Notes: generated from the letters alone by a model not told the origin. 64,000 bases of DNA from an uncultured Clostridium sp. (GCA_946500265.1 CAMMVE010000003.1:21882-85881); one strand, 5' to 3'. Positions 17,193 through 20,406 are shown, counted from the stretch's first letter. Numbers and translations: made by a program.

Positions 17193-17221
17193 TTGAAAAA
17201 GAAATGCTGTTAAGGTAGAAT
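17193..17221 (+). promoter_or_regulatory. Promoter of cassette copy 3 (TTGAAA-17-TAGAAT)
   Basis: -35 17193-17198, -10 17216-17221; A-rich UP-like tract upstream. Confidence 0.45.
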
Positions 17222-17563
17222 AAAGGCATACTAAGATAAAAAAAGTAAAAGGATTAAAAAAATACAAAGGAGAAAAAATGAGAATGCATAGAACCATTGA
17301 TACTGTAGAGAGAGAGAGAGAGAGAGAGTAGAATTTAGAGAAACTAGCTTTTTTTGTGATGCAAAAAAAGTAGTAAATATATTAAAGATAGAAACAATAA
17401 ATATATGTGCAAATAAAGCAGATTATCAAGAAGTATTAGGAGTTTTTGAAATTCTAATGCTAACGGATAGTCTGTTTTTTTGGTGAGTTTATTAAAAACA
17501 AAATAAAGAGATAATAATAAAAGAAAGATTAAAATTTTAAGAAAACGGAGGTACAAAAAGAAA
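17222..17563 (+). promoter_or_regulatory. 5' leader copy 3 (uORF 17278-17331 MRMHRTIDTVERERERE, (AG)11, GGATAGTCTGTTTTTTT 17464-17480)
   Basis: Diverged but alignable to leaders at 914 and 3976; same order of elements. Confidence 0.4.
17307..17328. repeat. (AG)11 microsatellite
   Basis: Perfect AG x11. Confidence 0.95.
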
Positions 17564-18976
17564 ATGAAAAAAACAGAAATAGTGAAAGGAATTACAGAAA
17601 AAAAGCAAAAATCAAAAGAACTTTACGGAACAAGAGGTATCACATTAGTAGCATTGGTAATAACAATAATAATCATAATAATACTAGCGACAGTAACAAT
17701 AAATATGGCATTTGGAGACGATGGTATCATAAAAAGAGCACAGCAAGCAGCAGATATGTATGCAAATGATACGGCATATACTGACCAAGCAATGGCAAAT
17801 GCGACAGCGTATTTAGATGAAATGTTAAATGGAGTAACAGGAGGGGGAGCAGACGAACCAGAAACTCCAGAAGTTCCATCGGACTGGGATTTGACAAAAG
17901 TGACACCAGTACTGTCAGAGGACAACCAATATGTCCCAGTGCCAAAGGGATTTACAGCATCAATAATAGATGGAGAGAAAAGTGTAAATGATGGATTCGT
18001 AATAAAGCAAGGAGATAATGGAGCAGCAACAACAGGAGTAAATGAATTTGTGTGGATACCAGTAGATGAAGAAAGTTTAGAAGAGATGTATAATACAAGC
18101 GCCCCAGGAACTGTATTAAGTAAAAGTACATTAAATGAGGAAACAACAACTACAGATGTATACAGTAATTTAAGGATTAGAAATACAGATAGTAGTGTTT
18201 TTATAGCTGGTAAGCCAGGTACGGTCAATTCAAGAGAACCAGATATAATACCTGATACAGAATTTGGAGATGCAGCGATAGGATATGACTATGCAGGAAT
18301 AGAGCCGATAAAAAATGTGTTAGGGATAACAGGAACGTATGTACTAGATGTATTGAAAAATTATTCACAGAGTTTGGTAAATGAATATCAAACTACATAT
18401 AGAAGTATAGAAAAATATAATGGATTTTATATAGGAAGGTATGAATTAACTGGAACAATAGAGAAACCAACAGTGCAAAAAGGAGAAAAAGTTATCGGAT
18501 CAGATTATACAATTAAGTGGTATCATTTAAAGAAAATGTGTATCGATTTAGTGAATACGGAATATGTTCAAACTGAAATGATATATGGAAATCAATGGGA
18601 TGAAGTAATGGACTGGCTGATAGAAACAGGAGAGAAAACGGAGAATCAAATAAATGAAGATTCAAGTAGTTGGGGAAATTATAGTAATTATAACCAAGTA
18701 AATGGATATGAAAGTGGAGACTCGGGGTATGTAGAAAAGGCAGGGACTGAAATTTTAACGTCAGGATTTAGTGAAAATTGGAAAGCAAATAACATATATG
18801 ATTTAGCTGGAAATGCTGCAGAGTGGACACAAGAGGCATTTGATACAAACATACGAAATGCTAGAGGGGGATTCTATTTCCCTTCAGGTATAGATATGCC
18901 GGTATCATGTAGATGGGGAAAATCCGTAGTTGACAATGAAGGAACTACAAGTCGTGTAACTATGATTATCAAATAG
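17564..18976 (+). CDS. Prepilin-like N-terminal anchor fused to FGE/SUMF1-type (formylglycine-generating-enzyme-like) domain protein
   Basis: GGAGG before ATG; N-term GTRG-ITLVALVITIIIIIILATVTINMAFGDDGII as in LRR genes; C-terminal ..FYIGRYE..GNQWDEVMDWL..AGNAAEWTQEAF..RGGFYF.. resembles FGE-sulfatase (DUF323) fold motifs. Confidence 0.8.
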   Translation: MKKTEIVKGITEKKQKSKELYGTRGITLVALVITIIIIIILATVTINMAFGDDGIIKRAQQAADMYANDTAYTDQAMANATAYLDEMLNGVTGGGADEPETPEVPSDWDLTKVTPVLSEDNQYVPVPKGFTASIIDGEKSVNDGFVIKQGDNGAATTGVNEFVWIPVDEESLEEMYNTSAPGTVLSKSTLNEETTTTDVYSNLRIRNTDSSVFIAGKPGTVNSREPDIIPDTEFGDAAIGYDYAGIEPIKNVLGITGTYVLDVLKNYSQSLVNEYQTTYRSIEKYNGFYIGRYELTGTIEKPTVQKGEKVIGSDYTIKWYHLKKMCIDLVNTEYVQTEMIYGNQWDEVMDWLIETGEKTENQINEDSSSWGNYSNYNQVNGYESGDSGYVEKAGTEILTSGFSENWKANNIYDLAGNAAEWTQEAFDTNIRNARGGFYFPSGIDMPVSCRWGKSVVDNEGTTSRVTMIIK

Positions 18977-19132
18977 ATTATATATGAAAAATCAGTGTGT
19001 AAAAATATTACATATTGATTTTTTATGTTAAATCATATGATTTTGAAGAATACTAAGCACATAATTAAGATATAAAACGAAAAATATAGTTATCGAAGTC
19101 GAAAATTGTAGATTTTTGTCATACGAAAAAAC

Positions 19133-19162
19133 TTGCAATTAATACATAATCATGATATAAAA
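19133..19162 (+). promoter_or_regulatory. Possible promoter TTGCAA-17-TATAAA in spacer before Rpn copy 2
   Basis: Conserved in duplicated spacer at 60288-60317. Confidence 0.3.
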
Positions 19163-19494
19163 TAAGCGTAATTAAATCTGGTGAATAATTAATTCAAAAT
19201 AATTTATATCAAAATAATATTTTATAAAGTTAATTCACATATATTCAAAAAAATTAAAATCTATATTTTTAATTCTAATGTTCTTAAAAATTAATAAATT
19301 AAAAGAATCTTAAAAAATATATAATTAGAATATAAAATTCAAAAAGTAAAGAACTAAATTTTTCACTTGCCAAATTTAAAATTAATCTAAAAATATCCCA
19401 TAAAACAAGTAATAATTAACTTCAAAATAAAAGTAATTTGATAAAAGCTATTGATAGGAATAAAATTATTTGCTAAAATAAGGAGGTAAAGGAA

Positions 19495-20406
19495 ATGGAA
19501 GAAGAAACAGAATTTGTAAAAAGCAAAAGTAGACTGGATTTGAAAAATGACTACGTTTTTAAAAGAATATTCGCAAAACCTGAAAACAATGAAGAACTAA
19601 AAGAATTTATAGAGGCAATATTAAATATAAAAATTAATAAGATAGAAGTCAAAAATCCAGAAATATCTAAAAATTATGTAGATGAGAGATTAGGAGTATT
19701 AGATATACGAGCGCAAATTGACAAAGATACAATAATAGATGTTGAGATGCAGGTAGCGAATGTGAGTACACTAGTAGATAGGAACATAGGATATGGTTCA
19801 AGATTAATAGCGGAAGATATAAGAGTAAGGCAAAGCTATGTGGCGTTGAAAAAATTTATCTCAATAAACATATTGGGAGATGACTTATTAAAGAGAAATA
19901 CATATCATAGTGTAGCACATATGAAATTCGAAGATATAGAGCAAAGCAAATATGTAGATATGGGATATAAAGAAGAGCAGGAAGTCTTAACAGACAAGAT
20001 AGAAGCACATTATATAGAATTAAAGAAGTTTATAAAAAGTAAGCCAGGACTTAGTAGTAAGTTAGAACAATGGTTATGGCTGATAGTGGGGGAGGAGGAA
20101 AAAGTAAAAATGGCAAGTGAAGAAAATAAAACAATAGAGAAAGTGGTAGAAGAATTAGACGAAATGAGTGCAGATGAGAACGAAAGATTAGAGGCATATA
20201 AAAGGAAGTTAGCAATCATAGACTATAATACATCAATAGAACTAGCTCATAAAGAACGGAATAGAAGAGGGAGAAAAAGCAGGTCAGGCTAAAGGGGAGA
20301 AAAGTGAAAAACTAAAAATAGCTAGAAAATTGAAAGAAAAAGGAATAAAAATTGAAGAAATTAAGGAAATAACGGAATTAACACAAGAAGAAATAGAAAA
20401 CATTTA
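19495..20406 (+). CDS. Rpn-family recombination-promoting nuclease, copy 2, interrupted by apparent +1 frameshift near 20257 (tail continues to 20406)
   Basis: N-term ..LKNDYVFKRIFAK..DVEMQV..; main frame stops at 20292 (..ERNRRGRKSRSG*) but next frame gives ..GIEEGEKAGQAKGEKSEKLKIARKLKEKGIKIEEIKEITELTQEEIENI* matching the tail of the 60712..61044 copy. Confidence 0.7.

Follow-up and report, generated by a model that had tools for sequence, protein, structure and literature searches.

The window analysed in this work is a 64,000-nucleotide (nt) stretch of DNA from an uncultured Clostridium sp. (GCA_946500265.1, CAMMVE010000003.1:21882-85881), with positions counted from its first letter. Its subject is a pair of similar loci, copy B (17186-20408) and copy C (58289-61045), in which a promoter-like site, a leader, a surface-protein gene, a spacer and an rpn nuclease gene, or what is left of them, follow one another on the plus strand. 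A previous reading made from the sequence alone (here called the sequence-only reading) took the whole series as one segmentally duplicated unit that moves or duplicates as such and then degenerates, the second copy being the decayed one. We compared 16500-21500 with 57500-62000 by BLASTN and the whole window with itself. Copy B contains the following features:

17193-17221, plus strand: promoter-like site, TTGAAA-17-TAGAAT, identical in copy C at 58296-58324
17278-17486, plus strand: leader mini open reading frame (ORF), ATG at 17278 with an AGGAG Shine-Dalgarno (SD) site
17307-17328, plus strand: hypermutable tract, (AG)11; n = 3, 10, 11 or 12 at the same locus elsewhere
17418-17481, plus strand: intrinsic terminator of the putative attenuator; stem GCAGATTATC...GGATAGTCTGT (17418-17475), inner stem, T7; dG -20.4, z -3.9
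17564-18976, plus strand: surface gene B, 470 aa, with a pilin-like N-terminal helix (RG↓ITLVALVIT) and a C-terminal fold resembling formylglycine-generating enzyme (FGE) and C-type lectins
18986-19024, plus strand: terminator of gene B, 21-bp hairpin and U6; dG -23.9, z -6.2
19098-19494, plus strand: conserved part of spacer B, with TTGCAA-17-TATAAA near 19135-19170 and the rpn promoter TTGATA-17-TAAAAT (TG-extended) at 19451-19479
19495-20408, plus strand: rpn B, with a PD-(D/E)XK nuclease ORF at 19495-20292 (265 aa) and an internal SD and ATG at 20110 (RpnS-type)

Copy C contains their counterparts:

58296-58324, plus strand: promoter-like site, TTGAAA-17-TAGAAT
58356-58608, plus strand: degenerate leader; a 42-codon ORF (58356-58484) keeps ...KTLDTVER, and (AG)n is reduced to GAGAG
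58609-60116, plus strand: surface pseudogene C, in three pieces with two frameshifts
60261-60649, plus strand: spacer C, homologous to 19098-19481, with the rpn promoter TTGATA-17-TACAAT at 60615-60643
60652-61044, plus strand: rpn remnant, open frame from the junction; SD (GGGGGAGG) and GTG at 60742, giving 100 aa with an HTH_Rpn_C domain

BLASTN of B against C gave four collinear plus-strand blocks, far above chance:

17186-17313 / 58289-58418, plus strand: leader block, 72.7%, E 9e-13
17632-17758 / 58635-58762, plus strand: N-terminus block, 78.9%, E 3e-25
19098-19481 / 60261-60645, plus strand: spacer block, 69.1% over 408 columns, E 2e-39
20012-20408 / 60650-61045, plus strand: rpn 3′ block, 81.1%, E 9e-108

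The homology is bounded by a -35 box at one end and a stop codon at the other. Much of the sequence-only description is borne out by this alignment, which did not dissolve into short chance matches. The order promoter, leader, N-terminus, spacer, rpn is the same in both copies, the spacers do align in blocks, and the 3′ part of the second rpn matches the first. The clean deletion in the 5′ part of the second rpn, put at ~540 bp, measures 530 bp, with B 19482-20011 absent between 60645 and 60650. The leader of C has indeed lost both the (AG)n tract, GAGAG standing in place of (AG)11, and the motif GGATAGTCTG, which is the 3′ arm of the locus B leader terminator. The two frameshifts claimed for the second surface gene were also found. 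The N-terminal piece (58609-58725, MEKKTIKEQTGITLVALVIT...) is ended by an extra base near 58715; the 439-aa body (58760-60079) carries the FGE-like motif NIYDLLGNYFEWT and a fibronectin type III (Fn3)-like stretch that is extra relative to B; and a second shift near 60060-60075 splits ...NGTGHFR (stop) from the family-typical tail SLISFRTQLYVK (stop), which ends at 60116. The 439-aa ORF and the 100-aa rpn remnant were found again in over 20 independent metagenome contigs, most of them Illumina/SPAdes. Sequencing errors as the cause of the frameshifts are excluded by the identical ORFs across independent assemblies, and the lesions count as real and fixed.

In the rpn segment, B and C show 24 synonymous and 9 non-synonymous differences over 79 codons (dS ~1.0, dN/dS 0.05), and by this high dS the split between the two loci is old. 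The surface-gene bodies share 27% identity over 139 aa plus short motifs, and their domain content differs. The identity of the spacers (69%) sits in blocks, one with the promoter-like TTGCAA-17-TATAAA and one a ~90-nt nearly invariant stretch with the TG-extended rpn promoter; the non-coding spacer is unusually conserved for its age because these promoter-bearing blocks hold the identity. Surface gene B and rpn appear to be separate transcription units, since gene B has its own terminator (18986-19024) and rpn its own promoter. We concluded that B and C are probably paralogous loci of one type, each made up of two independent transcription units, and that, judged from their sequences, they are mosaics, with conserved arms around an exchanged or hyper-diverged core. 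The duplication as such is ordinary; the value lies in the nature of the duplicated parts.

The promoter/leader/N-terminus module occurs four times in the window: in B, in C and in two further family members, c1 (module 1014-1466) and c2 (module 4066-4514), which form a tandem pair of BspA-type leucine-rich-repeat (LRR) genes, 78% identical. The leader of locus B (17278-17486) is called c3 where leaders are compared.

1014-3251, plus strand: c1; leader ORF start at 1014/1035, (AG)11 at 1074-1095, terminator at 1175-1238 with TTTTATT, BspA-LRR gene from ATG 1287
4066-6308, plus strand: c2; (AG)11 at 4120-4141, terminator at 4223-4286, SD hairpin at 4294-4304 / 4318-4328, BspA-LRR gene at 4335-6308

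If the entire promoter-leader-gene-spacer-rpn unit had simply been duplicated as a segment and its second copy had then decayed neutrally, this would explain why the four blocks lie collinear in the same order and why C has a deletion, a lost tract and two frameshifts. Such a history fits poorly with gene bodies that have diverged so far, and to different domains, next to a much better conserved non-coding spacer, and with a 5′ module that is equally common to the LRR genes c1 and c2. The remnant, moreover, combines its dN/dS of 0.05 at dS ~1 with a retained promoter and internal start, and neutral decay is doubted because a long-decaying copy should not remain open and constrained. We consider this account unlikely. 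Thus the whole-unit duplication of the sequence-only reading stands as common ancestry from promoter to rpn in the same order, but not as the copying of a unit, because the 5′ module is family-wide and the divergent bodies make the loci mosaic. The decay of the second copy likewise applies to the switch and the surface gene, which are degenerate, but not to the rpn remnant, which keeps its promoter, its internal SD and start and an intact ORF.

As paralogous loci of one type, B and C would go back to a duplication that is ancient by its dS (~1) and that took in the spacer and rpn at the least, and probably the entire locus. The body of the surface gene would later have been exchanged, or have diverged past recognition at the DNA level. 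C would then have lost the (AG)n tract and the terminator while its surface gene gained two frameshifts, and the 530-bp deletion would have joined the rpn promoter to the RpnS-coding part, removing the nuclease domain.

The leaders all open with an SD site and an ATG, followed by M..R(T)VDTV and by the (AG)n tract, translated as (ER)n. At n = 11, the length in this window, the locus B leader ends at a TAG (17329-17331) in the OFF frame. At n = 10 it runs for 68 aa to a TGA (17484-17486), across the terminator, and this form is a called gene in L004 (9717-9923; L numbers denote sequences compared with the window). The terminators of c1 and c2 have a 24-bp stem (dG ~-42 kcal/mol with the following hairpin, z ~-9). 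In c1 the leader stop TGA (1244-1246) adjoins a second hairpin (1246-1256 / 1270-1280) that is predicted to sequester the SD; in both c1 and c2 this hairpin pairs ACCUYUUGAAA with UUUCAGGAGGU, the SD of the LRR gene. A scan of the whole window at Rfam gathering thresholds found no known RNA family over the leaders; a 6S RNA at 28828-29012 (RF00013, 108.7 bits) was the sole match at that level.

All three tract-bearing copies of the window (c1, c2 and c3) have n = 11 and are in the OFF frame. Across samples of the species, the c3 tract takes the four lengths given above within 490 bp of otherwise almost invariant flanks, and the c1 tract has n = 7, 10, 11 or 12. The predicted ON states recur with a period of three, n = 7 and 10 being ON and n = 11 and 12 OFF. 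In-frame leader ORFs have been called as genes in metagenomes (13 clusters; also L104 454-663 and L107 4156-4359). In copy C, where a weak hairpin remnant is left at ~58499-58531, the switch appears by its sequence to be lost.

The motif GATAYTGTA(N)(GA)n was found at 79 loci in species-representative genomes, nearly all of them metagenome-assembled genomes (MAGs) of uncultured gut Clostridia. None of the 79 comes from the species of the window; the nearest is from a chicken-gut Clostridia MAG with ~90% identity over conserved genes. The motif-bearing relatives are, with few exceptions, uncultured Clostridia/Clostridium sp. from human, rabbit and chicken guts, one with a circular 1.57-Mb genome, and exact-protein matches to proteins of the window (GC 30%) occur in many human and animal gut metagenomes. 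Tract length across species ranges from n = 6 to 28, and the conserved N-terminus KGITLIALVITIIVLLILAGV lies no more than 900 nt downstream of the motif in 42 of the 59 loci with enough sequence. Two architectures were seen. In the split type, to which all window copies belong, a separate tract ORF precedes a strong hairpin with a T-run, beyond which lies the main gene, equipped with an SD and ATG of its own. In the fused type (L017, L034, L035 and L080) the tract lies inside the main ORF and in frame, in an N-terminal leader before the hydrophobic helix, with the pre-pilin-type pattern M..VDTV(ER)n..KG↓ITL... The tract of L052 and L072 is also inside the main ORF but out of frame.

Hairpins of at most -15 kcal/mol with a T-run within 330 nt of the tract were counted by ViennaRNA folding, with matched control windows from the same loci; the standard terminator scan misses the leader hairpins, as its loops are limited to 8 nt. 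Such a hairpin is present in 40 of 71 leaders and in 9 of 213 control windows (Fisher p = 8e-21). The long frame after the tract ends inside or just past the hairpin in 37 of these 40 loci, whereas the two other frames meet stops at a median of 3 and 15 nt past the tract and never reach it (0/40). The position of the long-frame stop correlates with that of the T-run (r = 0.77), and the stems vary in sequence between species with complementarity kept.

This anatomy suggests an attenuator in which a sigma-70-type promoter would be followed by a leader mini-ORF with (AG)n, an intrinsic terminator and the gene for a secreted or surface protein. Replication slippage would alter n and hence the reading frame of the leader. 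In one frame of three (n = 7, 10, 13...) the ribosome would translate into the terminator hairpin and prevent its folding, turning the gene ON; in the other two it would halt 0-27 nt past the tract, and the terminator would form (OFF). A ribosome terminating on the c1 or c2 leader would, in addition, melt the hairpin that masks the SD of the main gene. The hypervariability of the tract, the geometry of ORF and terminator and the existence of in-frame variants are direct observations. What the sequence-only reading had called a leader is a leader, and probably more than that, a device for phase variation.

A precedent is known from Streptococcus gallolyticus pil1, where slippage in GCAGA repeats was shown experimentally to alter the length of a leader peptide (Danne et al., 2014; PMC3894217), and where long peptides with a stop within or after the premature terminator block its formation (PMC3894217). 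By sequence, the loci described here share the traits of a pil1-type attenuator: a hypermutable repeat within a leader-peptide ORF, upstream of a premature intrinsic stem-loop terminator, and a leader stop that slippage shifts with the frame. As in pil1, a late stop would anti-terminate (ON) and an early stop leave the terminator in place (OFF), here as read from sequence anatomy alone, and the genes under control are for surface appendages or adhesins of a gut commensal. The repeats differ, being dinucleotide AG in 6-28 copies here and pentanucleotide GCAGA in pil1; the genes are single members of a very large paralogous family rather than one sortase-pilus operon. An SD-masking hairpin is added in c1 and c2, related species carry the tract inside the main ORF, and the taxon is a different one.

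A second comparison applies to the fused type. In Neisseria opa, CTCTT repeats in the signal-peptide region give the classical coding-region phase variation by simple sequence repeats. The fused members L017, L034, L035 and L080 resemble opa in that they encode (ER)n before the hydrophobic helix, and their tract would, by its position, act as a classical translational phase-variation switch. The whole protein would be switched without change to its mature part, because the tract lies in the N-terminal leader. Unlike opa, the window copies keep the tract in an ORF apart from the main gene, whose SD and ATG are its own.

To our knowledge, the only experimental demonstration of phase variation through leader-peptide attenuation concerns one Streptococcus pilus operon. 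The present locus suggests a second case, of independent origin and much wider spread, in which a very large family of surface proteins of abundant but uncultured gut Clostridia would be controlled, and tract lengths in metagenomes could then serve as an in vivo record of the ON/OFF expression of surface antigens.

Several points weigh against such a switch. The effect on transcription is inferred from the geometry and from a single experimental precedent, which belongs to another genus. Only 4 of 38 split-type leaders are ON, where one-third would be expected (P = 0.001); this rarity could reflect selection for OFF, or many switches could be relics. In 3 of 7 sampled strains only (AG)3 is left of the c3 tract, which would lock the switch OFF, and the 470-aa gene is still intact and identical, so that in these strains either readthrough is enough or the switch is dispensable. 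Finally, a 1-nt indel between c1/c2 and c3 changes the frame of the conserved nucleotide block AATTTAGAGAAA, and the conservation of the leaders of c1/c2 and c3 is thus partly at the nucleotide rather than the codon level.

Two of these points, the block conserved across a frame-changing indel and the OFF majority of split-type switches, are what one would expect if (AG)n were a neutral microsatellite in a 5′ untranslated region, the mini-ORF spurious and the conservation due to an RNA or DNA element unrelated to translation. Such neutrality would leave unexplained the geometry of one long and two short frames tied to the terminator in 37 of 40 loci across species, the SD and ATG ahead of the tract, the tract's unambiguously coding place in fused-type genes, and ON states at n = 7 and 10, a period of three. 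We regard it as improbable and favor frame-dependent attenuation.

The rpn genes form the second transcription unit of each locus. Besides rpn B and the remnant, the window has one further copy:

6795-7703, plus strand: rpn A, 302 aa, intact, with an internal SD and ATG at 7401, downstream of the LRR genes

Rpn A and Rpn B score 152.7 and 87.3 bits against TIGR01784 (cut-off 52.1 bits), match PF12784 with E-values of 2e-45 and 8e-44, respectively, and are 28% identical to each other. The sequence-only reading treated Rpn B as the intact copy, which it is not: it is frameshifted near 20250, with the helix-turn-helix (HTH) tail in the +1 frame to 20408, and the same 265-aa product is present in 6 of 6 contigs compared. 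PADLOC gave no meaningful match on the Rpn proteins and their neighbours. Rpn A is absent from some strains of the species, in which the number of LRR genes is also variable. L105 and L107 (6300-7520) have one LRR gene and lack window 6309-7787 (spacer and Rpn A), with 165 unrelated nt instead. A 63-nt direct repeat (6204-6266 / 7721-7783, 92% identical) duplicates the 3′ end of an LRR gene to the right of Rpn A.

In Escherichia coli, Rpn is a toxic nuclease neutralised by RpnS, a C-terminal protein made from an internal start (Zhong et al., 2023; PMC10400941). An SD-like motif with a start stands, by sequence, at the equivalent position in A, B and C (7401, 20110 and 60742), and the rpn unit here would follow the same toxin/intragenic-antitoxin design, a PD-(D/E)XK gene with its own promoter and an internal start for an RpnS-like product. 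The likeness to Rpn/RpnS (PMC10400941; Kingston et al., 2017, PMC5350276) extends to the N-terminal PD-(D/E)XK domain with a variable C-terminal domain, the putative internal SD and start at about residue 205, the multiple copies, the patchy presence between strains and the lack of terminal inverted repeats and target-site duplications. Unlike the E. coli proteins, which are described under PF04754, those of the window belong to PF12784 (PDDEXK_2); Rpn B has lost its HTH tail by frameshift, and copy C is a nuclease-less, promoter-fused gene for RpnS only.

The segment deleted in C (B 19482-20011) holds the SD, the start codon and ~172 codons of rpn, and the junction (60645/60650) lies just past the -10 hexamer of the rpn promoter, which ends at 60643. 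The nuclease domain is absent from the remnant; only the C-terminal part matches, PF27070 weakly, and the remnant is 85% identical to Rpn B residues 174-260 (tblastn). Its homologues in the database number 89, many of them on contigs of 25-125 kb. Two, those of L114 and L117, lie at unrelated loci and have junctions different from that of C: L117 joins the SD region of rpn to 'QWLWL' codons, and L114 joins the rpn SD to the internal one. Loss of the nuclease domain with retention of the promoter and RpnS would therefore have come about by no fewer than three independent deletions. Pairwise dN/dS among C, L114 and L117 is 0.14-0.20 at dS >= 1.

These data favor, by a modest margin, a maintained stand-alone RpnS-like gene over a dead remnant. 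Three points temper that reading. All 89 homologues are short (55-171 aa), but the search was word-based and missed the full-length Rpn B, so that this may be partly an effect of the tool; much of the constraint behind the remnant's low dN/dS could date from before the deletion; and Rpn B, the supposed toxin partner, is itself frameshifted at its C-terminus. If the stand-alone RpnS genes are kept by selection, it may be for neutralising related Rpn toxins, in an anti-addiction or immunity role. Orphan or truncated RpnS forms are unmentioned in PMC10400941; the RpnS-only form may be a variant beyond that description, and such a role, if true, would be new for the family. The rpn genes-within-genes seem to decay in one direction, the nuclease being lost and the promoter and antitoxin kept, which bears on how defence and toxin genes are tamed.

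The linkage of rpn to the surface genes was also followed outside the window. Of the loci in other species, ~35 have 3 kb or more of downstream sequence; rpn lies downstream of the family gene in none of these and upstream in one. On this count the idea that Rpn is a conserved companion of the gene family is rejected, and the linkage appears from these sequences to be specific to the species of the window. That the unit is a mobile element moved by Rpn as a 'putative transposase' is accordingly very doubtful. It would suit the position of rpn directly downstream at 3 of 3 family loci in the window and the presence or absence of Rpn A between strains, but Rpn A and B share no more than 28% identity, the homology of B and C stops at a -35 box and a stop codon, rpn is unlinked in the other species, and Zhong et al. 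(PMC10400941) found rpn genes to be without defined ends and saw nothing to indicate transposition by Rpn proteins. Both copies were searched for terminal inverted repeats and target-site duplications, with only AT-rich, chance-level pairs as the outcome, none common to B and C and none convincing. The movement of the module as a unit, as proposed in the sequence-only reading, finds no support in these findings or in the separate transcription units. The sequences rather give the picture of variable accessory islands that would accumulate family genes and rpn genes.

The surface proteins are hard to place by sequence. A Pfam scan at E <= 0.01 found no match for gene B or gene C. In a scan at E <= 10, gene B reached 12.5 bits against FGE-sulfatase (PF03781; residues 407-432), below the cut-off of 23.3, and neither surface protein passes. 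Gene B has more than 4800 unannotated database relatives; a profile of 37 of them gave weak matches in the PDB to 7tgg (E 0.003, at the pilin N-terminus) and SUMF2 (1y4j, E 0.008), and GspH matched the N-terminus weakly (E 0.15). The AlphaFold2 model of gene B has a pLDDT of 81.8 (>90 for most of residues 100-470). The leading Foldseek matches in the PDB almost all have the FGE/C-type-lectin fold, at modest scores (TvpA, E 1e-3; TaqVP, probability 0.97); further matches were OvoA, PorK, EgtB, PvdO, Mtd and FGE.

In its predicted fold, gene B is thus like the FGE/C-type-lectin-fold proteins TvpA, TaqVP, Mtd, PvdO and PorK, and the motif NNIYDLAGNAAEWT fits the FGE core. It is unlike them in its Pfam score and in the pilin-like N-terminus attached here, and the invariant columns show no conserved FGE catalytic cysteines. 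The term 'FGE-like' of the sequence-only reading is valid, on the strength of the model, for a resemblance of fold; membership of the family fails at the Pfam threshold. At the other end of the protein, the class III signal of type IV pilins reads G↓(F/M)TL(I/L)E, its +5 residue being Glu, and stands ahead of a hydrophobic helix. The N-terminal motif G↓ITLVALVIT has Ala at +5 and lacks this canonical Glu5, which counts against a pilin-based reading of the family. An assignment to the type IV pilins was not made, in view of this residue and the weak pilin profile matches. That the FGE/C-type-lectin-like genes are targets of a diversity-generating retroelement that drives the divergence of B and C is most improbable: variable proteins of such retroelements (TvpA, TaqVP and Mtd) are among the best structural matches, but nothing like a template repeat of either 3′ end is present in the 64-kb window, no reverse transcriptase gene was noted beside either locus, and the divergence extends over the whole body instead of a C-terminal variable region.

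Taken across species, a tentative and rather less than even proposal is that a major clade of uncultured gut Clostridia with small genomes runs its surface repertoire through one reusable cassette, a promoter with an (AG)n leader peptide, in two interconvertible architectures and that, separately, promoter-fusing deletions repeatedly convert rpn to orphan RpnS. That repertoire may comprise thousands of LRR and lectin-fold proteins with a pilin-like anchor. A full-text literature search for the N-terminal motif gave no matches, and one combining phase-variable dinucleotide repeats, pilin, Clostridia and metagenome returned only two papers, phage-focused work on the gut microbiome. In L084 (1713-4590), from the chicken-gut MAG with ~90% identical flanking genes, a 2.9-kb segment with an (AG)12 leader stands where the window has 1.2 kb (37302-38544), and because of this difference family genes appear to come and go at syntenic sites.

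The surroundings of copy C contain repeats and a strain difference. A GC-richer intergenic repeat with a unit of ~33 nt (AAAATGTCGGCGAGAGACCTGTCCCTAAAGCGACA) is present at 7975-8060 (plus strand), 61200-61262 (plus strand) and 55835-55905 (inverted). Its copies at 55865-55901 and 61221-61257 are inverted repeats, 97% identical, and flank a 5.3-kb island with a GT2-like gene, an HTH gene, a 349-aa gene, copy C and the RpnS remnant; another copy of this type lies to the right of Rpn A, upstream of era. L098 is 99.4% identical to the window until 6811 (window 58670), where the identity breaks inside the segment for the N-terminal helix of C and a YhcG/DUF1016 PD-(D/E)XK gene comes next; this is either a rearrangement at a family repeat or an assembly chimera. 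A RecD2-like helicase gene at 61268-63533 is split into ORFs of 683 aa (...AITVHKAQRK, stop) and 65 aa, which is taken as a real frameshift or truncation because the 683-aa form recurs in all metagenome contigs seen.

Elsewhere in the window, a palindromic repeat of ~50-70 nt occurs at four intergenic sites (15263-15337, 32098-32142, 33054-33139 and 63504-63559; 79-91% identity) and may be a shared bidirectional terminator or a REP-like element. The glycosyltransferase (GT) cluster downstream of recO (12682-13182; L001-L006 3900-5900) is polymorphic between strains, some having a 381-aa GT1 and a 265-aa GT2, the window and others ORFs of 164 and 85 aa. Direct repeats of 75-85% identity are found in the ribosomal-protein region at 41984-42110 / 44390-44517 and at 46063-46147 / 47167-47296 / 52749-52875.

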